Positions 6,113 through 47,859 of a stretch of DNA of 64,000 nucleotides are shown piece after piece. Within the stretch, counting starts at the first letter, position 1; each line of letters starts with the position of its first letter. Source of the stretch: a phage; the NCBI GenBank assembly GCA_027263115.1, contig GCA_027263115.1_3656.1; one strand, 5' to 3'. The position numbers were made by a program, and so were the translations under genes. The notes under the pieces are model-generated. The model was not told where the DNA came from. It searched no databases and saw only the letters and a list, made by a program, of their open reading frames with translations.

Positions 6113-7155
6113 TATTTAACGTGTTTGAAAATACCTGCCAACTCGGTCATTGTCATGCGGGTGGTCTTCATAAGATCTGTCATAGCTTTCTCCATAATTG
6201 GAGATACTACCATAAAGTTTCCTTTAGTGAAACCTTTATTCCAGTCGGTCACCAACAGAGGTTTAAGTCCAGCTCCAAGACGTTCACCAGTTAAAGCACA
6301 GCATTTGCGAATATACGAACTCTTAAATTGGCTGAACGACAGATCAACTTTCATACCTACATCGTAGAACGTTTGACAATAGAAAGTGTAAGCTTTGGCA
6401 ATCTCAACATCATCAGGTAGTGCAGGAACCTCTTCTGTAAGCTCCTCTTCGACCTCCTGAGTCTCTTTTTCCTCTTCATGCACCTGTTGCGTCATTTCTT
6501 CAATCTCTTCTGTGATAGGCTCGTTTACAATGTCGGAAATGTGCTTCTTGGGTGCACGATAAGTAACTTTAGACATCGGTAGCATATCTTCCTCCTCTTC
6601 TTCGTCAAAGAGTGCTAGTTTATCCTCTTCCGTTCCATATTGCAAGATGAAATCTTCAAAAGTATAATCACCTTTCAATTTCTCCATACGCTCTTCGCTC
6701 AGGTGGAGCATCATCTGCTGGACAATTTTTCGATCAGTTTCGTCTTTAATCAAGACTGCAGTCTTTTTATCTACCAGACAGTCCTTTAGAGAGTTGCATC
6801 TCAATCCCACCACACAACAGTTATCAACCGCATAAGGACCTTCATCATCTATCCGCTCCAGAGATGGGTAGAAAGGATTTCCCAGCCCGTTTTCATCTGT
6901 GTGCATGTCAAAAGGTATAAGGGTATAGTCGCATACTCCATCTCCTAAAAGTTTTTTACCAAATAGGAGGTATTCTTCCCATGACAGGTCGAACTCTATA
7001 TCTCGTTTCCGTGCGTTATTCTGTTTGCGTCTATATTTTTTGAGCAAGCGCTCTAACTCTTCTGGTGTATAATATTTTTCAAGATTCATGAGTCGTCTCT
7101 CGTGCTCTGTAAGTGAAGAAATCGTATCAATTGTCTCAACAGATGTCAACATCAA
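6112..7155 (-). CDS. HNH-like endonuclease domain protein with acidic C-terminal region
   Basis: N-terminal region carries an SLERID...PY..DN....CN..K pattern typical of a phage HNH variant; possible internal start at MSKVTYRA (see inverted repeat finding). Confidence 0.45.
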   Translation of the reverse strand: MMLTSVETIDTISSLTEHERRLMNLEKYYTPEELERLLKKYRRKQNNARKRDIEFDLSWEEYLLFGKKLLGDGVCDYTLIPFDMHTDENGLGNPFYPSLERIDDEGPYAVDNCCVVGLRCNSLKDCLVDKKTAVLIKDETDRKIVQQMMLHLSEERMEKLKGDYTFEDFILQYGTEEDKLALFDEEEEEDMLPMSKVTYRAPKKHISDIVNEPITEEIEEMTQQVHEEEKETQEVEEELTEEVPALPDDVEIAKAYTFYCQTFYDVGMKVDLSFSQFKSSYIRKCCALTGERLGAGLKPLLVTDWNKGFTKGNFMVVSPIMEKAMTDLMKTTRMTMTELAGIFKHVK

Positions 7156-7231: not shown

Positions 7232-8131
7232 ATGGCAAATCTTAACAGTTTTAGTACGCGGTGGAAACAGGACATAACAACCAATCTTTCAGCTGGGGAC
7301 ATCCTTTCTGCAATTTACGAGGCTTTAGATGATAAAGCTACTTCAAAAGCGGTTTGTACCAACCCACTAATTCCTGTAGTGATGAAGGTTATTGAGCGTA
7401 GATTGGTATCTGGGTCTGATAAGTGGACATATTTAGATAATGAAGGACACACCTATTCCAATGGGTACGTCGATATAAAAGTAGAATACGCGGTATCATA
7501 CCGCCGGAGCGGTTCTGTAACTTTCAACTTCTCTGGAGGTTTTCGATCTCTGGCTACCTCACCTTTTGTTTCCTCAGAGGAGAAGTATGAGCTGCCATTT
7601 CTTTGGATGATGGCTAACGCGACAGGAAAAACCCCCGTTAGCATCCGAGTAAAATACAACTACAACGGATCTAGTAAGATCTATGCCGAAAGTGTCTCAG
7701 CAAGTTTTTATTTTGTGATGGGGGATGGAATCCTCAAACATATAAAGATGTGCGATATGCATGATGTTATAAATGAAGTGACTGATAAGAATGTTCTAGT
7801 GAAAGACCTCAACAATTTTTATACACCCGGAGACTATTACGTCAGCCGTCCACTGTGCATCTTTAATGCCGCACACCCTCTAGGTGAGTATTTGATCGCC
7901 AATAGTGATATTGCCAATAACCGCTTCGAGGTAGCAAGAGTTCAGAATGAGGTATTGACATCTTGCAAGAGCGGTGATAAGTTTACCGAAGAAGAGATGG
8001 GTGTTTTAGAAATGATGGGATATAAGTGTAGCCTTTGGGTAGATGAGGTGTTTAATGATTGCATCTATGGACAGGATATTTACCCATTAAAGAAGTATAC
8101 TGATACAAGTTTAATTTATGCGAGGGTTTGA
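7232..8131 (+). CDS. hypothetical protein
   Basis: 299-aa ORF with TAGGAG RBS; first gene of the rightward block. Confidence 0.6.
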   Translation: MANLNSFSTRWKQDITTNLSAGDILSAIYEALDDKATSKAVCTNPLIPVVMKVIERRLVSGSDKWTYLDNEGHTYSNGYVDIKVEYAVSYRRSGSVTFNFSGGFRSLATSPFVSSEEKYELPFLWMMANATGKTPVSIRVKYNYNGSSKIYAESVSASFYFVMGDGILKHIKMCDMHDVINEVTDKNVLVKDLNNFYTPGDYYVSRPLCIFNAAHPLGEYLIANSDIANNRFEVARVQNEVLTSCKSGDKFTEEEMGVLEMMGYKCSLWVDEVFNDCIYGQDIYPLKKYTDTSLIYARV

Positions 8132-25564: not shown

Positions 25565-25918
25565 GATGAGTACCAACTTCAGGTCCCTGACACGCCTAAG
25601 TATAAGACTGTGTACACCTTCGACACAATTGAAGAACTGGAAGCATTTAAGGCAGAGCAGGAAGCCAAACTTCATGTGTTCGACGGTCATAAGTACAAAA
25701 AGGCACGCAAGGATGAGGACGGAAACGAAGTGGTTGACAGAGATGGAAACACGGTGTACGATCCTATCCTGAACGATGACGGAAAGCTTGAACTTATCTG
25801 GAGCCCTGTGGGTGAAATGGTGGTGCATTGCTTCTGGCAAGCTTCTAAAATGATGGGCGTCCCGTTCCAGATCACAGGTGAATACCTGTGTGGTCGTAAT
25901 TGGGGGGATTGTCACTAA
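25565..25918 (+). CDS. family A DNA polymerase, exon 2 (motif C Asp-Glu and C-terminus)
   Basis: begins DEYQLQV giving spliced ...YYHDEYQLQV (motif C); ends GRNWGDCH like T7 GPNWAICH and Pol I GENWDQAH as recalled. Confidence 0.7.
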   Translation, partial: DEYQLQVPDTPKYKTVYTFDTIEELEAFKAEQEAKLHVFDGHKYKKARKDEDGNEVVDRDGNTVYDPILNDDGKLELIWSPVGEMVVHCFWQASKMMGVPFQITGEYLCGRNWGDCH

Positions 25919-25967
25919 TGTAAACTATCAACACATGGAAGTGTTGTTGAGCAAAGAGGAGACTTTT

Positions 25968-34839: not shown

Positions 34840-35110
34840 GCAGCTTTCCAAGTACTCGATCTGTTTTTCGTTTCAAAGATTGAATTTTCTGAAAATTTTT
34901 CTCGATAAATTTCTCAGTACTCGATCTGTTTTTCGTTTTCTGAATCTGATTTTCTGGAAATCGTTCCGGCTCTCGACCTGAAATTTTTGGGGACGAAATC
35001 GATTTTTCGTTTTCAGAAATGGATTTTTAAAATTTCTATATGGGAATATTTTAGTGGATACTATTTTATAGGAAATTGTTACGGAGGGTAATTAGCGTGC
35101 TAATTAAATT
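34840..35110. repeat. non-coding direct-repeat region
   Basis: 23-bp direct repeat agtactcgatctgtttttcgttt at 34851 and 34916; tttttcgttttc motifs; palindrome taattagcgtgctaatta at 35089-35106. Confidence 0.6.
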
Positions 35111-35351: not shown

Positions 35352-35554
35352 TCCTTTCGATAGGTATATTTTGCCACCTGGCGGGGCCGCTGTCAACACT
35401 TTTCAAAAAAATTTCTAACCTGATGCGCTGACCGCTGCAACCTGGCGGGGCCAGCCTGGCAGGGCCTAACTGACCAGGTAGGAGAGAATGAAGGCTTGCA
35501 AACCTGGTGGGCCTATGCTATAGGATAGGTAACAATTGAAGAGGAGGTACAAAA

Positions 35555-36077: not shown

Positions 36078-36476
36078 ATGAAAACCACTACCTTTAATTT
36101 TGATAATGCGGACTTTTCTTTTTCTGATGTCAAGAACTGCCGCCGTGATCGTGGATTTTACAAGGCTTATAATCTGGTGGGCCTGGACGATGACAATAAT
36201 TTGCACGAAGTAGCTGAGATCCGGTATTATGCCGCCGCCAGTGGTAACACTCACTACTGCGTGTTTTGGATTCACGACAACAAGAACAATAAGTACGGTT
36301 ATACTGGCGGCAAGGCGAGCGGTCACGGTTACGATAAAGCTAACGCAGCACTTGAGAGTGCATTAAATGCTATGGGGATCACTGCCGACGGCTGGATCTA
36401 CGAAGAAGAGTTTTTGTCGGCACTTGCTGACCACCTGGGCTATAAAAAGCACATTGTGACATGCGCCCACGAATAA
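36078..36476 (+). CDS. hypothetical protein
   Basis: 132-aa ORF with AAGAGGA RBS. Confidence 0.55.
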   Translation: MKTTTFNFDNADFSFSDVKNCRRDRGFYKAYNLVGLDDDNNLHEVAEIRYYAAASGNTHYCVFWIHDNKNNKYGYTGGKASGHGYDKANAALESALNAMGITADGWIYEEEFLSALADHLGYKKHIVTCAHE

Positions 36477-36483
36477 AAATCAT

Positions 36484-36511
36484 TGACACGCTGCAAAATT
36501 TAAGTAAACTA
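36484..36511 (+). promoter_or_regulatory. sigma70-type promoter
   Basis: TTGACA-16nt-TAAACT. Confidence 0.55.
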
Positions 36512-36558
36512 GACACAAAAGGCGGGGATGTTTCCCGCCAGCACAAAGGAAAAAGATC

Positions 36559-36954
36559 ATGAATAAGAACGTACGCCGCATCATGAACGAACTGGCAAAC
36601 GATGAAAAAATTATTGACATGCATTTATTCAACATTTGCCGCCGTTGTGTAACATATAACAACCGCGCCGCAAAAGCGCGTGAGATGAATGCGAAAGGCA
36701 CCTTAAAGCCCTTTCAGGTGGTTGTAAAATCTATAACCAGTGCAGCAGGCCAGGCGCATGACCACAACAACGAGAGCGCTAATATTGATCCGTCTTACGT
36801 AATGAAACGGATCCGGACTTGCAAGAATAAAGAGCAGGTGTATAACGTCATAGATTGGCTGGACTCCCTGGGTGATGTGGTTTACAATAGGTTTTCTGCA
36901 GCTATCGAGATCCAGCTTGACAGATTGGACGGGAAAGTACTGAAAACTTACTGA
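36559..36954 (+). CDS. hypothetical protein
   Basis: 131-aa ORF with AAAGGAAA RBS. Confidence 0.55.
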   Translation: MNKNVRRIMNELANDEKIIDMHLFNICRRCVTYNNRAAKAREMNAKGTLKPFQVVVKSITSAAGQAHDHNNESANIDPSYVMKRIRTCKNKEQVYNVIDWLDSLGDVVYNRFSAAIEIQLDRLDGKVLKTY

Positions 36955-37002
36955 GTTTATTTTTAGATGGCCTTGACTCCAGGGCCATCAATAAAGTAAA
37001 CT
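36955..37002 (+). promoter_or_regulatory. repeated palindromic promoter-like element, copy 1
   Basis: tttatttttagatggccttgactccagggccatcaataaagtaaac; 7-bp stem gatggcc/ggccatc with TTGACT in the loop and TAAACT about 18 nt downstream. Confidence 0.5.
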
Positions 37003-37033
37003 AACCACAGTTGAGCGGAAAGGGGGCTTAAAG

Positions 37034-37153
37034 ATGAGTACTACACGCCAGCACACAAAGGTAACTATTATCGTTTGCATCATTGGTTACATCCTGGCGC
37101 AAATGTTGATGGGTAGCGCCAACGGTATCGCAAAATTTTTCTTAAACTTTTAA
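37034..37153 (+). CDS. small hydrophobic peptide (39 aa)
   Basis: AAAGGGGG RBS; predicted single TM helix; C-terminal SANGI motif shared with the 43512 peptide. Confidence 0.4.
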   Translation: MSTTRQHTKVTIIVCIIGYILAQMLMGSANGIAKFFLNF

Positions 37154-37181
37154 TTGACAAGCTAACTTAGATCAGTATACT
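37154..37181 (+). promoter_or_regulatory. sigma70-type promoter
   Basis: TTGACA-16nt-TATACT. Confidence 0.65.
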
Positions 37182-37231
37182 AAACACATAAACGGGAAAA
37201 CTTCCCAGAACACACAAAAGGAGAAAACACC

Positions 37232-37573
37232 ATGACTACTATGACCGCCGCAGAAAAAGCTATGCAGATCGCCGCGCTGAAAAAACAGATCGCAGACCTT
37301 GAGAATAAGATCGATAACTTTGAAATCGACGAGGACAAGTACGACGAAAACTATGATGAATGGTTAGACGAGATCTACGGCGAAATTATGATCGGAAACA
37401 TTTCTTTTCTTCCGTCGCGTATCCTCAAGGAGCTAGATCCTATCGCTTACCGCTGCGGATTTAGCGACTACATCGACAGCTTGGATATTGAGGACGATGA
37501 AGAATACCAGGAATTGCATACAGAGCTTGAAGAAGTGAAAGAAGAGCTTGCAGAACTGGAAGAAAACGAGTAA
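37232..37573 (+). CDS. hypothetical acidic coiled-coil protein
   Basis: 113-aa ORF with AAGGAGA RBS. Confidence 0.55.
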   Translation: MTTMTAAEKAMQIAALKKQIADLENKIDNFEIDEDKYDENYDEWLDEIYGEIMIGNISFLPSRILKELDPIAYRCGFSDYIDSLDIEDDEEYQELHTELEEVKEELAELEENE

Positions 37574-37620
37574 ATTTATTTTTAGATGGCCTTGACTCCA
37601 GGGCCATCAATAAAGTAAAC
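37574..37620 (+). promoter_or_regulatory. repeated palindromic promoter-like element, copy 2
   Basis: identical to the 36955 element; immediately follows a stop codon. Confidence 0.5.
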
Positions 37621-37662
37621 TTTATACTGTTAACACTGAACTAATGCATAGGAGTTAAAACC

Positions 37663-37908
37663 ATGGCAGCACTAATCACCAAATATTATGCCCCTACCAA
37701 CACCAAAAGCGCCCGTATCATGGTAAAAGGCTTCGGACGTAAAAAGGTTTACACCTGGGATTATGCCTTAGACACGGAAGACAACTACACCAACGCGATG
37801 ACCGATTTTATTAATGACCTGAACACGCGGATCTTGACAAATTATCAAATTACCGATATTGCCTATATAGGGGAAGGCGGGATCTGTTTTGTCGGTATCG
37901 TCAAATAA
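37663..37908 (+). CDS. hypothetical protein
   Basis: 81-aa ORF with TAGGAG RBS. Confidence 0.55.
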   Translation: MAALITKYYAPTNTKSARIMVKGFGRKKVYTWDYALDTEDNYTNAMTDFINDLNTRILTNYQITDIAYIGEGGICFVGIVK

Positions 37909-37983
37909 GCTGGTTTTTCGGTGGTCCTGGTAGCAGGGCCATCTATAAAGATAGTTTATCAACACAATGAAAGGAGAAAGTAC

Positions 37984-38331
37984 ATGATCAGCGGGGCTAG
38001 TTTTATTATTGGCGCTATTGCTACGGCTTTAATTGTAAACAAGATCCAGGATAAAAAGGAAAGTACCGCCCTTGCAGAATATCCATTTTGGACATTCAAC
38101 GATAATGAAGATTATATTATAAAGTATAAAAATAAAGAAGGTGACCAAGTAACACCGCGACCGATCCCGGCTTACAAAATGCAGGAAACACTGTACCGCC
38201 TGGAAGCGGGGGGCGCAAAAATTGTAGACTTTTGGGGATACGATCACACAGATCAGGAAGTTATAAAGCGCCGTATCCGGGCTATTCAGGCCAATATTGA
38301 AGTTAGCAAGGGGGGAATATATGAAGATTAA
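37984..38331 (+). CDS. hypothetical membrane-anchored protein
   Basis: ATG after AAAGGAGA; N-terminal hydrophobic helix; track start 37921 less likely. Confidence 0.5.
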   Translation: MISGASFIIGAIATALIVNKIQDKKESTALAEYPFWTFNDNEDYIIKYKNKEGDQVTPRPIPAYKMQETLYRLEAGGAKIVDFWGYDHTDQEVIKRRIRAIQANIEVSKGGIYED

Positions 38332-38518
38332 TTTTGAGAAGATTGTAAAGCGATCTCATGATTCCGAAGATCTGCCGGAACGACGCCAGCGTAACAATAA
38401 ACTGAATAAGCCAAAAAGATTTGGGAAGATCTGGCGAAATCATTATGATCGTAAACTGCCGGGCCTGCTTTTGGAACGTGAACGACAGGCGGAACGATAC
38501 CGCCACAAAGACAAATAG
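38321..38518 (+). CDS. small basic protein
   Basis: ATG after AAGGGGGG; Arg/Lys-rich. Confidence 0.45.
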   Translation: MKINFEKIVKRSHDSEDLPERRQRNNKLNKPKRFGKIWRNHYDRKLPGLLLERERQAERYRHKDK

Positions 38519-38526
38519 CAACCAAC

Positions 38527-38551
38527 GCCCCGCCATTGTGCGGGGCTTTTT
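38527..38551 (+). terminator. intrinsic terminator
   Basis: gccccgc-cattgt-gcggggc hairpin followed by TTTTT. Confidence 0.7.
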
Positions 38552-38698
38552 ATTTCTATCCCGCCGATAGCGCCCCTGGTTGGCCCTACAAGCGCCATAA
38601 AGGCCCCTACCTATGCAATCCCCTTTATTAACCTGAAAACATCGCCCAGGGCCGTTTTATGGTGTTAAAATATTATTGATAGTTATTTTATTTAAAGC

Positions 38699-38727
38699 TT
38701 GACACCTTGGAATAGTCCGGATATACT
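38699..38727 (+). promoter_or_regulatory. sigma70-type promoter
   Basis: TTGACA-17nt-TATACT. Confidence 0.65.
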
Positions 38728-38762
38728 AACCACATCAAAGCAAGAAGGAAGGAGTAAACGCC

Positions 38763-39032
38763 ATGCGTAAATTAAAAAATTTTGATAAAGTTGATATTGT
38801 CCTGAATAATTTTTACTACTGCAATAACAAGGCCGTTTGGTGGCGTGATAGTTCCACCGATAAAGTCAAGGCGCGCTTTCTCCAGGGGCACTGGCAAGGC
38901 CGCCCAGTGATTAAAATCATGGGGCAATTGGTAGCGTTTAAAAATTGCCGCCGTGTTGATGACGTTGAAGAGATTTTAAACATTTTGCGCCACAATAATT
39001 TAAAAATAGTGTTGACAAGTAAATCTCAATAA
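38763..39032 (+). CDS. hypothetical protein
   Basis: 89-aa ORF with AAGGAAGGAG RBS. Confidence 0.55.
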   Translation: MRKLKNFDKVDIVLNNFYYCNNKAVWWRDSSTDKVKARFLQGHWQGRPVIKIMGQLVAFKNCRRVDDVEEILNILRHNNLKIVLTSKSQ

Positions 39033-39039
39033 GTATAAT
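39012..39039 (+). promoter_or_regulatory. sigma70-type promoter
   Basis: TTGACA-16nt-TATAAT, overlapping the 3-prime end of the preceding gene. Confidence 0.65.
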
Positions 39040-39096
39040 TAAAAACACAGGCGGGAAAACTTACCGCCACTAACAAAGAAAACAGGAGAAAATATC

Positions 39097-39720
39097 ATGA
39101 CCACCGTTAACATTACCACAGGTTGCAATTTATCTTTCGACGTGCTGACCGACGAACAAAAAGAAAAAGCTATTGAAATGGTCCGCGAAAGAGAAGAACA
39201 CAGCGGAGAGGATTTTTTCGCAGAAAGTGTAATTGAATATTATAAAGAACAAGTTTTTCCAGAGTACGGCCTTGAAGATACCGATGTACATTGGTCCGGC
39301 TTTTGGTGCCAGGGTGACGGCGCGTCAATCAGTGCTGAAAACGTGGATTTAGAAAAATTCTTGCGTAAAGTAAAGGCCCTGACCAAGTTCCGATCAATTC
39401 GTCACTTGTTTGGCACAATGCACGATGGCGAGTTATCAGCCAGTATTGAACGCGACAAGTACAGCCATTACAGCCATGAAAACACTGTAAGCGGATACAT
39501 TGATACCACCTGGCTAGATCTGACCGCCAAACAAGAAAACAAAGTGGAAGACCTGGAAGAGCTGATCACCGAGACGGTACGGGAGCTATCCCGCAAGGTT
39601 TACGTAGACCTGGAGGAGGCCTATCTAGAACAGTTCACTACCGAAAACCTGATCGGCCTTATTGAGGCCAATGATTGGCGGTTTGATGTGGATGAATATG
39701 GAGAGATGAGTTTTTCATAA
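39097..39720 (+). CDS. hypothetical acidic protein
   Basis: 207-aa ORF with CAGGAGA RBS. Confidence 0.55.
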   Translation: MTTVNITTGCNLSFDVLTDEQKEKAIEMVREREEHSGEDFFAESVIEYYKEQVFPEYGLEDTDVHWSGFWCQGDGASISAENVDLEKFLRKVKALTKFRSIRHLFGTMHDGELSASIERDKYSHYSHENTVSGYIDTTWLDLTAKQENKVEDLEELITETVRELSRKVYVDLEEAYLEQFTTENLIGLIEANDWRFDVDEYGEMSFS

Positions 39721-39809
39721 ATAAAGTGTTGCAATAATCTAAAAACCTGCTATATTAAAACTCAAGGGGGCAAGACGTTTGCCCCACACAAAACAAAGAG
39801 GAAAACATT

Positions 39810-40190
39810 ATGAAAAACACTACTAAAGCTATTGACACCGTTATGTTTAACCTGGTTACCTTTCGCGAGGATATGAAAGATCTTCCACGTGAAACAGTGT
39901 GCGATCACATTGAAAACTATCGCAAACTAATCAAAGAGTTGCCTTTAAAACGTGACCAGTATGCGGCTAACGCTATGCTCAACGCCATGATCAAAAAGAT
40001 GATTCAGTGTGATTTAACCCTGGCCTATGATTATGCAGGTGGTCGTTTTGCAGTATACAATCAGCCCGTGCCTGGTATGGGCACCACCGAAGAATTGCAC
40101 GCGCTCAATCTAAAACAAGACGTGTGGGATAGTATGCCCCGCGTGGTGGTGTGGGCAGAAAGCGGAAAGATTTACGGCGATAATTTTTAA
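39810..40190 (+). CDS. hypothetical protein
   Basis: 126-aa ORF with AAGAGGA RBS. Confidence 0.55.
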   Translation: MKNTTKAIDTVMFNLVTFREDMKDLPRETVCDHIENYRKLIKELPLKRDQYAANAMLNAMIKKMIQCDLTLAYDYAGGRFAVYNQPVPGMGTTEELHALNLKQDVWDSMPRVVVWAESGKIYGDNF

Positions 40191-40197
40191 TCAGGTA

Positions 40198-40228
40198 ACA
40201 GGCGGCATATTTGCCGCCTTATTGTTAA
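40198..40228 (+). terminator. intrinsic terminator
   Basis: ggcggcatatttgccgcc hairpin followed by TTATTGTT. Confidence 0.6.
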
Positions 40229-40254
40229 ACAGAACTGCAAAAGAGGTACATAGA

Positions 40255-40626
40255 ATGGAATTTATTATTTTGGCCGTATTAGTTGCCTTGTTTAACGCCT
40301 GGATCGCTGGCAAGATGGGTAGATCCGCCTTTTTATGGTTTATTATATCTATTTTCCTGGGGGTGGTTTCAACTATTGTACTTGTTATCCTTGCAATTGT
40401 TGACAAAGGTGATAATAGAAAGGGTAAAGTATTTTCCGACCTGTATGACGCGCAAACATTTGTCAACGCCTATTATAGTGATCTTCCAGTCTCCCTACGC
40501 TGCAGCCTTGCACAACAGGTTTTCGATGAAGCTAAAACCAGAGATCACGCCCATGAGATTTGTTTAACTGAGGCGGATCGCCTATTTGAGAGGAATAGAA
40601 AATATGTGGGCCAGCCGTTTAAATAA
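40255..40626 (+). CDS. hypothetical membrane protein
   Basis: start at internal Met of track ORF 40222-40626 after AAAGAGG; two predicted TM helices. Confidence 0.5.
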   Translation: MEFIILAVLVALFNAWIAGKMGRSAFLWFIISIFLGVVSTIVLVILAIVDKGDNRKGKVFSDLYDAQTFVNAYYSDLPVSLRCSLAQQVFDEAKTRDHAHEICLTEADRLFERNRKYVGQPFK

Positions 40627-40849
40627 TACCACGTTAATTAATCCCTTTGATGAAGATTTGAAGCCAGCCGCCTGGCGTGATGGATTCAATAACGAACGCT
40701 TTATTTTCAGGCCTGATCTTAAGGAATTTTATAACAATGGATCGAACAACGACAGAGATAATTTTTCTTGTGATGTGCGTGGTGATGGTACTCCTGGGGG
40801 CCATTGTAAACCACGTCACTACTACCAGGATGAAAGGGGGAGACGATGA
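40604..40849 (+). CDS. hypothetical protein
   Basis: ORF; start uncertain between 40586 and 40604. Confidence 0.45.
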   Translation: MWASRLNNTTLINPFDEDLKPAAWRDGFNNERFIFRPDLKEFYNNGSNNDRDNFSCDVRGDGTPGGHCKPRHYYQDERGRR

Positions 40850-40965
40850 CAACCAAGGATAAGCCCCGCACCGATAAGGTGCGCCGGGTTATGGTATGGC
40901 TTGAGATCATCGCCCTTGAAATATTGTTAGGCGTAGGGATGTATTTTATCGCTGTAAGTAACTGA
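40846..40965 (+). CDS. small hydrophobic peptide (39 aa)
   Basis: ATGA overlap with upstream stop; predicted TM helix. Confidence 0.4.
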   Translation: MTTKDKPRTDKVRRVMVWLEIIALEILLGVGMYFIAVSN

Positions 40966-40968
40966 TAA

Positions 40969-41010
40969 CGGCCCCCGATCCCTGGGGGCCTAACTTTTTA
41001 AAATTTTTTT
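40969..41010 (+). terminator. intrinsic terminator
   Basis: ggcccccgatccctgggggcc hairpin followed by a T-rich tract. Confidence 0.65.
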
Positions 41011-41106
41011 TCTCCCTGAGTGTTGCAATCCGATCCAGAATATGGATAATAATAATCAACGGGGAGCTAATCCCCACCAACACAAAAACCAGAAAGGAGA
41101 AACAAA

Positions 41107-41307
41107 ATGAGCAACAATATCCGCGTTATTAACTTCAAAAAAGAAGAAAAAATTGCCGTGCTGATTGACGGTCAAGAAATCTTCAAGGGCTATTATGAAG
41201 ATCATCAAACGGCGATTAGTATCACTCGCGTGATTGGTTACCATAATTTTTACCCCCAAGGCGCTGAGGCGGCGGTTAAACGAATCAAAGAGATTGTAGG
41301 CCTGTAA
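41107..41307 (+). CDS. hypothetical protein
   Basis: 66-aa ORF with AAAGGAGA RBS. Confidence 0.55.
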   Translation: MSNNIRVINFKKEEKIAVLIDGQEIFKGYYEDHQTAISITRVIGYHNFYPQGAEAAVKRIKEIVGL

Positions 41308-41355
41308 AATTTATTTTTAGATGGCCTTGACTTCAGGGCCATCAATAAAGTAAAT
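41308..41355 (+). promoter_or_regulatory. repeated palindromic promoter-like element, copy 3
   Basis: variant of the 36955 element (ttgacttcagggcc); immediately follows a stop codon. Confidence 0.5.
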
Positions 41356-41400
41356 TTAAACCCTGTTAAAAGACCACGCAGTTAACAAGGAGTGATAGAC

Positions 41401-42609: not shown

Positions 42610-42843
42610 ATGATGGAACAAATTAAACGCGCTGAGGCTATTAATGGCAATGTGATCTATTTTGTCAGCAAAAACGAAAAAGGCGTACCATATGCGGCGG
42701 TAATAGTACAACCTGACGGCGATTATTGGTTTACTGTGTACGGCGCTTATTCTTTTGGGCGTCCAGTGCATGATAAAATTTTGAAAGTAGCGAACCCTAC
42801 CGGGAAGAATATCACAGCAGAAAAATTTTTTGAAAATAGTTGA
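42610..42843 (+). CDS. hypothetical protein
   Basis: 77-aa ORF with AGAGAGG RBS. Confidence 0.55.
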   Translation: MMEQIKRAEAINGNVIYFVSKNEKGVPYAAVIVQPDGDYWFTVYGAYSFGRPVHDKILKVANPTGKNITAEKFFENS

Positions 42844-42868
42844 CATGACCATATAAGACTGTAATATA
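42840..42868 (+). promoter_or_regulatory. sigma70-type promoter
   Basis: TTGACA-17nt-AATATA. Confidence 0.5.
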
Positions 42869-42918
42869 TAAATCAAAGGGGGCAACAAGCCCCACCAACC
42901 ACAAAGAGGATAAAAATC

Positions 42919-43098
42919 ATGGCTATTATTGCAAAGACTGAGATCGTAGGCTTAGATTCTATTCTACTCGCATATGAGGAAGCTATAGAAATGTATGTGG
43001 TTTCCTACGGTGAATATATCCGTGAATATAAATCTATTGATCTAGCTTTTGAATGTTATATTCGCCAGGTCAATAAAGCATATGATGATTATCGTTAA
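42919..43098 (+). CDS. small hypothetical protein (59 aa)
   Basis: ATG after AAGAGGA; below ORF-track cutoff. Confidence 0.45.
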   Translation: MAIIAKTEIVGLDSILLAYEEAIEMYVVSYGEYIREYKSIDLAFECYIRQVNKAYDDYR

Positions 43099-43189
43099 AA
43101 TAGTTTGACAACAAACAACCATCTAACAAAGCATAATACATAAGGTGGTAGAATGATCCGCCACCTGGAACAAAGAAGAGGTAAACACC

Positions 43190-43435
43190 ATGAAAAGCAA
43201 TAAAGGTTATAACGGTTACAAAAACAAAACTCATTGGAATGTAAGCCTTTGGATTAATAACGATGAGTCATTGTACCGGTTGGCCCAAGGCTTTATTAAC
43301 GCCAATGCTAATCGTAATGATGCGGCGCGGGATATGATGCTTTTTCTGGAGCTAACCGGACAAGATAAGACCCCGGACGGCTTCAAGTACAGCACTACGG
43401 CGATCCGTGCCGCGATGGTTGGAATGAAACACTAA
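43190..43435 (+). CDS. hypothetical protein
   Basis: 81-aa ORF with AAGAGG RBS. Confidence 0.55.
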   Translation: MKSNKGYNGYKNKTHWNVSLWINNDESLYRLAQGFINANANRNDAARDMMLFLELTGQDKTPDGFKYSTTAIRAAMVGMKH

Positions 43436-43511
43436 AAGCATATAGCCGCCTTACCCTGGGGCCGCTGCTACGGCCCCATGAATAAGGTTACTAACAGAAG
43501 AGAATAAACAC

Positions 43512-47166: not shown

Positions 47167-47177
47167 TTATCATCTCT

Positions 47178-47300
47178 GTGTAAACAGTCAATCATGTAAA
47201 CTATTAGATATGTAAACAGTAAAGGGCGTGAACAGTAAGCGAGGGAATAGTAATAGCGTGAATAGTGACAGCGTAAACAGTGACAGCGTAAACAGTCAGG
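47178..47300. repeat. iteron-like GTAAACAGT repeats
   Basis: at least six copies of GT(A/G)AA(C/T)AGT, including two tandem 15-bp units gacagcgtaaacagt at 47267-47296. Confidence 0.6.
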
Positions 47301-47400
47301 CATGTCAATTATGTCATATTGTGTCACCATTATGTCACTATTGTGTCACCAGTATGCCCAGTATGTCAATTGAGTCTAAAGTGTCAAAGGTGTCAGACAA
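47301..47400. repeat. 10-bp-periodic TGTCA tandem array
   Basis: about ten units (catgtcaatt, atgtcatatt, gtgtcaccat ...) each containing TGTCA or a near variant at helical-turn spacing. Confidence 0.6.
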
Positions 47401-47859
47401 GTTTTTCTCCTCTTTGTCAAGTGCTGCATGAAAAATTTACAAGCTTGTATGGTAGCATTTTTGCGGCCCGTTTACATTCAGTGATGTATGTATAACCCTT
47501 GTTGTGTGGGAGTTTAGACGTCTAGACGGTTGGAAGTCTGCAGGTCAATATCTAATCTATCGGCTGCTAACTATATCCCACACAAATAGTAAGAAATATA
47601 ATTGTTATATGTGTAAACAGTAACTCATGTTATCAATCCCTGTATGGATCGCCAGTGGTGCGCATAATGGGTATTATGTTAAATTGCCCGTAATGATAAC
47701 AGTTCTCACAATGATAGGTATTCTCATTCATCCACACAAAATAGGTTGCAAATGTTGTGCCACTGTGTGAACGGCCTGGCCTATTAATTTCTCTCACTGC
47801 CTCGATATTTGAGGATTGTTATAAGAATGAGAAGTATTCCCATTCCGTCCGCCTGGCAG

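Follow-up and report, generated by a model that had tools for sequence, protein, structure and literature searches.

A repeated promoter-like stem-loop element between early genes of a Vequintavirus as a probable cassette boundary and recombination point

Overview

We analysed a 64,000-nucleotide stretch of phage DNA (contig GCA_027263115.1_3656.1 of the GenBank assembly GCA_027263115.1; hereafter the window), which carries in its early region several copies of a short palindromic element, each placed at a stop codon. We propose that this element is probably a composite promoter/stem-loop boundary cassette between early ORFan genes of a Vequintavirus, similar to the promoter-early stem-loop (PeSL) cassettes of T4-like phages, and that it is also a point of recombination. 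The repeats, the RNA-type conservation of their hairpin, the conservation of the TTGAC motif and the recombinant genomes are direct observations, whereas from the sequence we infer promoter activity and the fate of the RNA. The original prediction, made from the sequence of the window, had recognized three of the copies; it had missed the two-tier extent of the hairpin, a fourth copy, the role of the copies as recombination points and the match to PeSL cassettes.

In the mechanism that we envisage, an AT-rich, UP-like tract, TTGACT and, after 18 nt, TAAACT would act at the DNA level as a promoter of the host sigma70 type, restarting transcription for the next small gene. In transcripts reading through from upstream, the same 50 nt would fold as a two-tier hairpin, starting at the stop codon and delimiting the upstream cistron on its 3′ side. 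This hairpin could serve as a processing site of the ribonuclease III (RNase III) type, as a barrier to 3′ exonucleases or as an attenuator, rather than as an intrinsic terminator. Transcripts initiated at the element's own promoter would begin 3′ of the hairpin and would thus lack it. Finally, because the copies are near-identical direct repeats, they would serve as substrates for homologous recombination, which would delete, convert and exchange cassettes between them, including with a different phage subfamily.

Copies of the element and their genomic setting

A search for the element, run with its 24-nt palindrome and with a 44-nt pattern, gave exactly three plus-strand matches in the window and none in 100 shuffled sequences. 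This confirms the predicted near-identical copies at 36955, 37574 and, as a variant, 41308, and establishes that the repetition is real and non-random. Copies 1 (36956–37002) and 2 (37575–37621) are identical over 47 nt, and copy 3 (41310–41356) matches them at 45 of 47 positions, with one C>T change in the loop and another in the −10-like hexamer (Table 1). A repeat search together with a covariance model built from the four window copies further revealed a fourth, diverged copy at 37905–37959; with its filters off, the model found no copy in the window beyond these four.

The copies had been predicted to start close to upstream stop codons, and these were found directly 5′ of copies 1 to 3 (TGA at 36952–36954, TAA at 37571–37573 and TAA at 41305–41307). 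The first paired base of copy 1 is the final base of the TGA stop of the open reading frame (ORF) at 36559–36954, copy 2 starts at the final base of the TAA stop of ORF 37232–37573, and copy 3 directly follows the TAA stop of ORF 41107–41307. The fourth copy again lies directly after a stop codon, the TAA of ORF 37663–37908. All four copies begin at the last base of a stop codon or directly after it, and the Shine-Dalgarno (SD) sequence and ATG of the next gene lie 25–45 nt 3′ of them.

Sequence comparison of the region assigned the window to a Vequintavirus, an rV5-like E. coli phage, with 92–96% identity to more than 100 rV5-like coliphages. The element occupies the early region, a one-strand array of hypothetical genes of 30–200 aa with many consensus sigma70 promoters. 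Almost every intergenic spacer there contains a sigma70 promoter close to the consensus immediately 3′ of the stop codon, a small hairpin rich in G+C, or the two together. The four copies are packed into 4.4 kb of this ORFan-rich array, the gene content of which differs among relatives, and none of the seven proteins flanking the copies reaches a Pfam gathering cut-off.

The element is present in 121 phage records, typically with three sites in each genome; apart from one Justusliebigvirus, every carrier is a Vequintavirus. No copy was found in 185,579 bacterial species genomes (GTDB scan) or in 5,426 complete E. coli genomes (BLAST), and because of this absence from the bacterial genomes searched we rejected a host origin of the element and its identity with the repetitive extragenic palindromic (REP) sequences of bacteria. 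No Rfam family matches the element.

Table 1. Coordinates of the element copies and associated features in the window
Feature	Position	Strand	Details
Copy 1 (type A)	36954..37002	+	dG −25.1 kcal/mol, z −6.6
Copy 1, outer stem	36954–36963 / 36993–37002	+	
Copy 1, inner stem	36966–36975 / 36980–36989	+	loop 36976–36979
Copy 1, hexamers	36973–36978; 36997–37002	+	−35-like TTGACT; −10-like TAAACT
Copy 2 (type A)	37573..37621	+	dG −22.5 kcal/mol, z −5.8
Copy 2, hexamers	37592–37597; 37616–37621	+	−35-like; −10-like
Copy 3 (type A variant)	41308..41356	+	dG −23.6 kcal/mol, z −4.3
Copy 3, hexamers	41327–41332; 41351–41356	+	−35-like; −10-like TAAATT; loop ACTT
Copy 4 (type B), diverged paralogue	37905..37959	+	dG −24.4 kcal/mol (+ strand), −10.5 kcal/mol (− strand)
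Upstream early promoter	36483..36510	+	TTGACA-16-TAAACT
Consensus early promoter	37154..37181	+	TTGACA-16-TATACT; annotated P192 in rV5
Copy 1–copy 2 cassette	37003..37572	+	39-aa ORF 37034–37153, sigma70 promoter 37154–37181, 113-aa ORF 37232–37573
81-aa ORF between copies 2 and 4	37663..37908	+	missing from 241Ecol014PP

A two-tier hairpin conserved as RNA

The sense-strand RNA of the element is predicted to fold into a two-tier hairpin of about 50 nt with a free energy of −22.5 to −25.1 kcal/mol (z from −4.3 to −6.6; 0 of 200 shuffled sequences were equally stable). The inner stem has 10 bp, formed by GAUGGCCUUG with CAGGGCCAUC and including one U·G pair, and is capped by the tetraloop ACUC. 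The predicted hairpin is present, but with 10 bp and a 4-nt loop in place of the 7-bp stem and 10-nt loop first described, and the TTGACT hexamer comprises the last three bases of the inner 5′ arm and three loop bases. A 2 × 3 nt internal loop parts the inner stem from an outer stem, also of 10 bp (A-GUUUAUUUU with AAAGUAAACU), in which the T-rich tract after the stop codon pairs with AAAGTAAACT in the TAAACT region. The outer stem has its 5′ end at the last base of the stop codon and the −10-like TAAACT in its 3′ arm, and with this second stem the whole of the approximately 50 nt forms one hairpin. The antisense strand folds much worse, with −17 kcal/mol for copy 1 and −10.5 against −24.4 kcal/mol for copy 4.

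To describe the conservation of this structure we used 78 instances (52 of them distinct), gathered with the covariance model from 26 sequence sources, namely the window, 17 GenBank phages and metagenomic contigs. Standard pairs fill 98.5% of the pair cells, as against 93.9% in column shuffles, of which 0 of 500 reach the observed value, and 35–56% once the partners are slid by 1–3 columns. Four outer-stem pairs have changed on both sides. A G-C pair of copy 1, between the base after the stop codon and position 5 of the −10 hexamer, is A-U in copy 3, where the C>T change in the hexamer faces A instead of G, and between the type A and type B outer stems U-A has become C-G and A-U has become U-A. 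The five variable pairs of the inner stem all changed on one side only, always to or from G·U, and over all instances there are 134 G·U cells versus 6 A·C cells. In each of the 52 distinct sequences the sense (+) strand is the more stable one. Copy 4, which represents type B, keeps both stems through G·U and compensatory changes, although its loop (GTAG) is wholly different and TTGAC is gone, with CTGGTA in its place; its 3′ arm CAGGGCCATC and the following ATAAAG are unaltered. Because the pairing is conserved, compensatory changes occur, G·U far exceeds A·C and the sense strand is the more stable, the comparison points to selection acting on the structure of the sense-strand RNA and not on a symmetric, protein-binding DNA operator.

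An operator had been part of the original prediction, in the form of a regulated promoter with the palindrome overlapping its −35 box. Here a dimeric repressor of phage or host would bind GATGGCC-N10-GGCCATC and shut off the early genes. The inverted repeat does bracket the −35, and phages of this kind are expected to shut off their early genes; an Srd-like anti-sigma factor is considered as a possibility in the rV5 paper (PMC3606486). The promoter-like part of that prediction stands, whereas the operator finds little in the sequences to sustain it. Stem changes that G·U tolerates on one strand only are meaningless for the recognition of duplex DNA, and the half-sites of copy 4 are unequal (GGTGGTC versus GGCCATC) while its RNA pairing is perfect, so symmetric half-sites are not conserved as sequence. 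In addition, pairing continues through the AT-rich outer stem, where compensatory changes occur, and in all covers about 50 nt, much more than an operator would; none of the neighbouring early promoters surveyed has this palindrome or a comparable inverted repeat over its −35. We consider an operator highly improbable.

Predicted fate of the RNA

Promoters lie upstream of each unit that a copy closes: at 36483 for copy 1, at 37154 for copy 2, in copy 2 itself for copy 4, and at about 41023 for copy 3. The hairpin would therefore be confined to read-through RNA, where it would lie at the 3′ terminus of the preceding cistron. In size and shape, a stack of two 10-bp helices interrupted by an internal loop corresponds to the RNase III sites of early transcripts in phages. 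Such sites have at least some 20 bp of (coaxial) double helix and in many cases an internal loop, and the predicted fold offers 10 + 10 bp around its 2 × 3 nt loop. The most likely role of the predicted hairpin is that of an RNase III-type processing site or of a 3′-exonuclease barrier. An RNA processing site had been the second option in the original prediction, and it fits the selection on the sense-strand hairpin; the RNA reading appears well supported on these grounds.

A stable hairpin immediately after stop codons also invites comparison with an intrinsic (Rho-independent) terminator, and PeSL stem-loops have been reported to terminate transcription in reporter assays (PMC2839356). No U-tract follows either stem of the element, however: the inner stem is followed by AAUAAAG and the outer one by AACCAC, UUAUAC or UUAAAC. 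The terminator scan made no call at the element, and the annotated terminators of phages EdH4 and Alma never coincide with it. These results agree with the original remark that the hairpin is not a simple terminator, and we give an intrinsic terminator scarcely any credence.

Neither a promoter nor a U-tract could be recognised at two further long intergenic hairpins of the window, those at 43445–43495 and 35460–35522 (about −24.6 and −25.5 kcal/mol), which may act at the RNA level as additional 3′-end or processing elements of the early transcripts.

Promoter-like sequence of the element

The element looks like a sigma70 promoter. TTGACT is followed by an 18-nt spacer, as had been predicted, and then by TAAACT or TAAATT, giving a 9/12 match to the consensus, and an AT-rich, UP-like tract, (A)AATTTATTTTTA, lies upstream of the −35. 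TTGAC is kept in 54 of the 56 type A (promoter-bearing) instances, in which any of the four bases stands at the sixth −35 position and C or T at the loop base after it; in the loop of the promoter-less type B, three of the four positions are variable. TAAACT holds the critical A2 and T6 of a −10 hexamer. It is also the −10 of the promoter at 36483, which has a perfect TTGACA, shares the −10 segment AAGTAAACT with the element and would make a transcript reading into copy 1. Hexamers of the TAnACT kind recur among the neighbouring early promoters (TACACT, TATACT, TATTCT), and in the phi92-like phage PD114 the same AATAAAGTAAACT segment is found 16 nt after TTGCAA, free of any hairpin. No other promoter-like site was seen in the short spacers 3′ of copies 1–3, and in the annotation of phage Gotham, made by another group with PhagePromoter, copies 2 and 3 are marked as promoters.

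These data bear on the possibility that the element is purely an RNA signal, for RNase III-type processing or mRNA stabilisation, with TTGACT and TAAACT being fortuitous and no transcription starting there. The hairpin is indeed the most conserved feature, copy 4 retains it without TTGAC, and each copy ends a unit that already has its own upstream promoter. Moreover, a match of merely 9/12 with an 18-nt spacer is of a quality common by chance in the region, and the element lies outside the published rV5 promoters. On the other side, TTGAC persists in type A while the adjacent loop bases vary freely, whereas the type B loop is variable nearly throughout; the −10 segment is reused in the hairpin-free promoters at 36483 and in PD114; a hybrid of copies 2 and 4, described below, yields TTGACA-17-GATAAT; and the genes 3′ of copies 1–3 would otherwise have no promoter-like site in their short intergenic spaces. 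We therefore regard a pure RNA element as unlikely, though deserving of serious attention, and retain the composite promoter/stem-loop reading.

Other early promoters of the window (36476–36559, 37153–37232, 39720–39810, 42843–42919 and 43098–43190) are followed by a short G+C-rich hairpin in the predicted 5′ untranslated region (UTR), e.g. GGCGGGGATGTTTCCCGCC, and this pattern of promoter and 5′-UTR hairpin is also seen beside homologous genes in phi92-like phages (L032, L040, L041). A weak Rfam match to Clostridium-PBP RNA at 39742–39812 (36.8 bits against a gathering threshold of 94.4; E = 0.09) is most likely just the 5′-UTR hairpin after the promoter at 39729.

Recombination at the copies

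Related phages provide natural recombinants. The phages ime, magaca and ECP26 each carry a single hybrid element, flanked on the left as copy 1 is and on the right as copy 2 is, and lack 619 bp corresponding to the cassette between these copies plus one repeat; the flanking haplotype of ECP26 is unlike that of ime and magaca. In 241Ecol014PP, a hybrid of copies 2 and 4 has its crossover in the shared CAGGGCCATC-N-ATAAAG segment, the 81-aa ORF between them is absent, and the resulting junction reads TTGACA-17-GATAAT. The Justusliebigvirus KKE7M, a phi92-like phage of the Stephanstirmvirinae, contains the promoter at 37154, the 113-aa ORF and the element at about 97% identity, and comparison with its close relative PD114 identifies this block as a gene replacement. 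Its left junction falls inside a shared promoter, the one at 37154 in the window (TTGACAAGATAACTAAAATC), and its right junction at AATAAAGTAAAYT, the −10 segment of the element. Furthermore, identical variants of the loop, with A, G or T at two of its positions, occur in different genomes at each of the three paralogous loci, a pattern suggestive of gene conversion. Taken from sequence comparison, these cases indicate that the repeats are recombination substrates at which small genes are lost or swapped; the direction of each event, deletion or insertion, is the one that we infer. The recombinants and the transfer of a cassette across subfamilies provide good illustrative evidence for this role, which is better documented than any other proposed for the element.

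The same observations could be expected of a selfish or neutral repeat that plays no part in regulation, either a recombination scar or a mobile palindrome resembling REP sequences or miniature inverted-repeat transposable elements, its copies kept similar by gene conversion. Copies are dispensable, as seen from a 5-bp deletion in Gotham and from hybrids that arise with loss of a copy; variants are common to paralogous loci, suggesting conversion; and one transfer has crossed subfamilies. Such a repeat would, however, not readily account for the stable copy number (3+1) at fixed orthologous positions in about 120 genomes, for the lack of copies elsewhere in the 64-kb window and in the bacterial species and E. 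coli genomes searched, for the single orientation and invariable start at a stop codon, or for the diverged copy 4 keeping its pairing by compensatory change. We judge a selfish or neutral repeat improbable, and favour a boundary cassette that is also a recombination point.

In the laboratory-evolved phage rV5_ev146 (LR699804), deletions of 510 bp and of several kb are present at 6395–6660 and 7900–8010, corresponding approximately to window positions 36536–37046 and beyond 38470. The loss of copies in this phage was considered as an element-mediated deletion and rejected, since both junctions lie at unrelated short microhomologies, namely the short direct repeats CGCCAGCACA, and ATCACCGGG..TGCCTGTC. 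Microhomology-mediated deletion thus also trims the region.

The 113-aa ORF of the copy 1–copy 2 cassette encodes a small, coiled-coil-like ORFan and is a widely travelled early gene, with homologues of 35–58% identity in phages of Vibrio, Klebsiella, Citrobacter, Aeromonas and Serratia as well as of Acinetobacter, Pseudomonas, Proteus and Stenotrophomonas. Behind its distant homologues in phages Tr1 and FKP3, an ordinary spacer with promoter and then hairpin follows, not the element. The genes after a ribosome-site repeat at 37637 and 42245 were considered as paralogues of each other; this was rejected, as their proteins have no similarity.

Points weighing against a composite boundary cassette

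Several findings weigh against the reading that we favour. With regard to the promoter, a 9/12 match with a suboptimal 18-nt spacer is not rare, 71 such matches being found in the region where 44 would be expected by chance, and the list of 33 promoters given by the rV5 authors does not include the element. A search of the accessible literature found no Vequintavirus transcriptome and no data on transcript 5′ or 3′ ends. Only a small number of independent mutational events underlie the conservation of TTGAC, a motif that in any case lies partly within the stem. With regard to the hairpin, the independent covariation events are few, because much of the covariation stems from one old split between types A and B together with gene conversion spreading the variants. 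With regard to recombination, the two rV5_ev146 deletions nearby used unrelated microhomologies and not the element, and individual copies are dispensable, since copy 1 of Gotham is broken by its 5-bp deletion and cassettes have been lost in viable phages.

Comparison with known systems

The closest parallel to the element is offered by the PeSL cassettes described in the T4-like phage pairs RB49/phi1, T4/PST and KVP40/nt-1 (Arbiol et al. 2010, PMC2839356; Comeau et al. 2014, PMC4122927). In these, an upstream stop codon lies in an AT-rich tract, followed by sigma70-like boxes, a stem-loop that can take any of five positions, one of them over the −35, an SD sequence and a start codon. PeSLs are grouped among ORFans in hyperplastic regions and flank indels, and DNA lying between tandem copies can be excised (PMC2839356; PMC4122927). 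Promoter and terminator or attenuator activity and the formation of mini-circles are further marks of the class. The element shares this layout, with a stop codon in an AT-rich tract, −35 and −10 boxes that match the consensus as described above, a stem-loop overlapping the promoter at the −35 and the −10, and an SD sequence and ATG. It occupies the same intergenic position between stop codon and SD sequence, it is repeated among ORFans in a plastic early region, junctions of indels and replacements between related phages fall at it, and the DNA between tandem copies has been deleted.

The two also differ. The element occurs in Vequintavirus, whereas both papers describe PeSLs in T4-like phages only (PMC2839356; PMC4122927). 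Its copies are near-identical (45–47 of 47 nt), in contrast to the loose motif formed by PeSLs, and its two-tier hairpin of about 50 nt covers the whole promoter, from the −10 back to the UP-like tract, while the stem of PeSLs is short and rich in G/C. No sequence similarity between the element and published PeSLs was detected. Because the carriers are Vequintavirus and one Justusliebigvirus rather than T4-like phages, we call the element PeSL-like by function, a likeness seen here at the level of sequence, and not a member of the PeSLs by descent or a homologue of them.

With respect to RNA, the element can be compared with the RNase III hairpins, such as R1.1, that lie between the early genes of coliphage T7. 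Like these, the element is an intergenic hairpin that spans about two turns of helix, is interrupted by an internal loop and lies between the end of one cistron and the ribosome-binding site of the next, in what would be a polycistronic early transcript of the host RNA polymerase. After cleavage, such a hairpin would stay attached to the upstream mRNA and stabilise its 3′ end. The element additionally carries a sigma70 promoter-like sequence, and no similarity to the T7 hairpins was found, either in sequence or through Rfam. REP sequences and bacterial interspersed mosaic elements (BIMEs) are bacterial intergenic palindromes, of which REP sequences stabilise upstream mRNA segments and act as recombination sites. 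They resemble the element as repeated, imperfect palindromes without a U-tract just after stop codons. REP sequences are, however, chromosomal, with hundreds of copies in both orientations and no promoters, whereas the element is phage-specific, with 3+1 copies in one orientation.

Papers on the Vequintavirinae mention only sigma70-like early promoters with UP elements (rV5: PMC3606486; Certrevirus CB7/CR3: PMC7344957). These promoters share with the element the genome region, the expected polymerase and a TTGAC-type −35 after an A/T tract. The element is absent from the published promoter lists, and neither an associated hairpin nor a role in recombination is described in them (PMC3606486; PMC7344957).

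Implications for early-gene turnover

The early regions of large virulent phages hold most of their uncharacterised host-takeover and anti-defence genes, and the gene content of these regions turns over fast. Turnover through boundary cassettes has so far been documented only in T4-like phages; the natural recombinants suggest that in rV5-like and phi92-like coliphages, too, it occurs at conserved promoter/hairpin boundaries. The element provides a rule by which cassette borders can be recognised and exchangeable ORFans predicted, as well as natural "landing pads" for the engineering of therapeutic phages of this group. Should the hairpin prove to be a processing site that overlaps a promoter, it would provide a compact example of a single sequence with one reading as DNA and another as RNA.

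A bolder proposal, which we put forward tentatively as possible rather than probable, is that the 50 nt are dual-coded, as a sigma70 promoter on the DNA and as an RNase III-type processing hairpin on read-through RNA, the −10 region and the UP-like tract supplying its two outer arms. On this view every ORFan would be an insulated and self-contained transcription unit, made up of promoter, gene and 3′ hairpin, that homologous recombination could move between unrelated phage subfamilies, and modular shuffling of the PeSL type would be general to large virulent coliphages instead of a peculiarity of T4-like ones.

Additional observations

A pattern scan of IMG/VR in which the inner hairpin was left free gave 10 matches, none of them in rV5-like contigs; nine were AT-rich chance matches and one was a look-alike in an unrelated low-GC phage. 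The look-alike lies at 893–954 of IMGVR_UViG_3300042275_000518, a 190-kb low-GC viral contig, and resembles the element in flanks and layout with a different inner hairpin: a stop codon, TTTATTTTTAG, an 8-bp hairpin (GGGACAAT/ATTGTCCT), CAATAAAGTAAAT, an SD sequence and an ATG follow in this order. It may be a chance AT-rich match, the scan having fixed 18 of these bases, or a case of convergence.

Seventeen GenBank records of the MG0656xx series, named "Campylobacter phage ..." and marked UNVERIFIED, are labelled as phages of Campylobacter jejuni and are 93–96% identical to the Vequintavirus region. Five more "Campylobacter phage" records of this series match the phi92-like KKE7M locus. The host labels of these records look doubtful.

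Upstream of the copies, at 34842–35027, three to four tandem degenerate repeats of about 65–74 nt (TTTC..AGTACTCGATCTGTTTTTCGTTT..) are accompanied by only tiny ORFs, and these repeats may correspond to the "non-coding" box of the rV5 genome map. A further motif, TGTGTAAACAGT..CATGTAAAC, recurs several times within 460 bp at 47177–47637, near a switch in strand orientation, and is also found at 25901–25928; it might represent iterons or a regulatory array.

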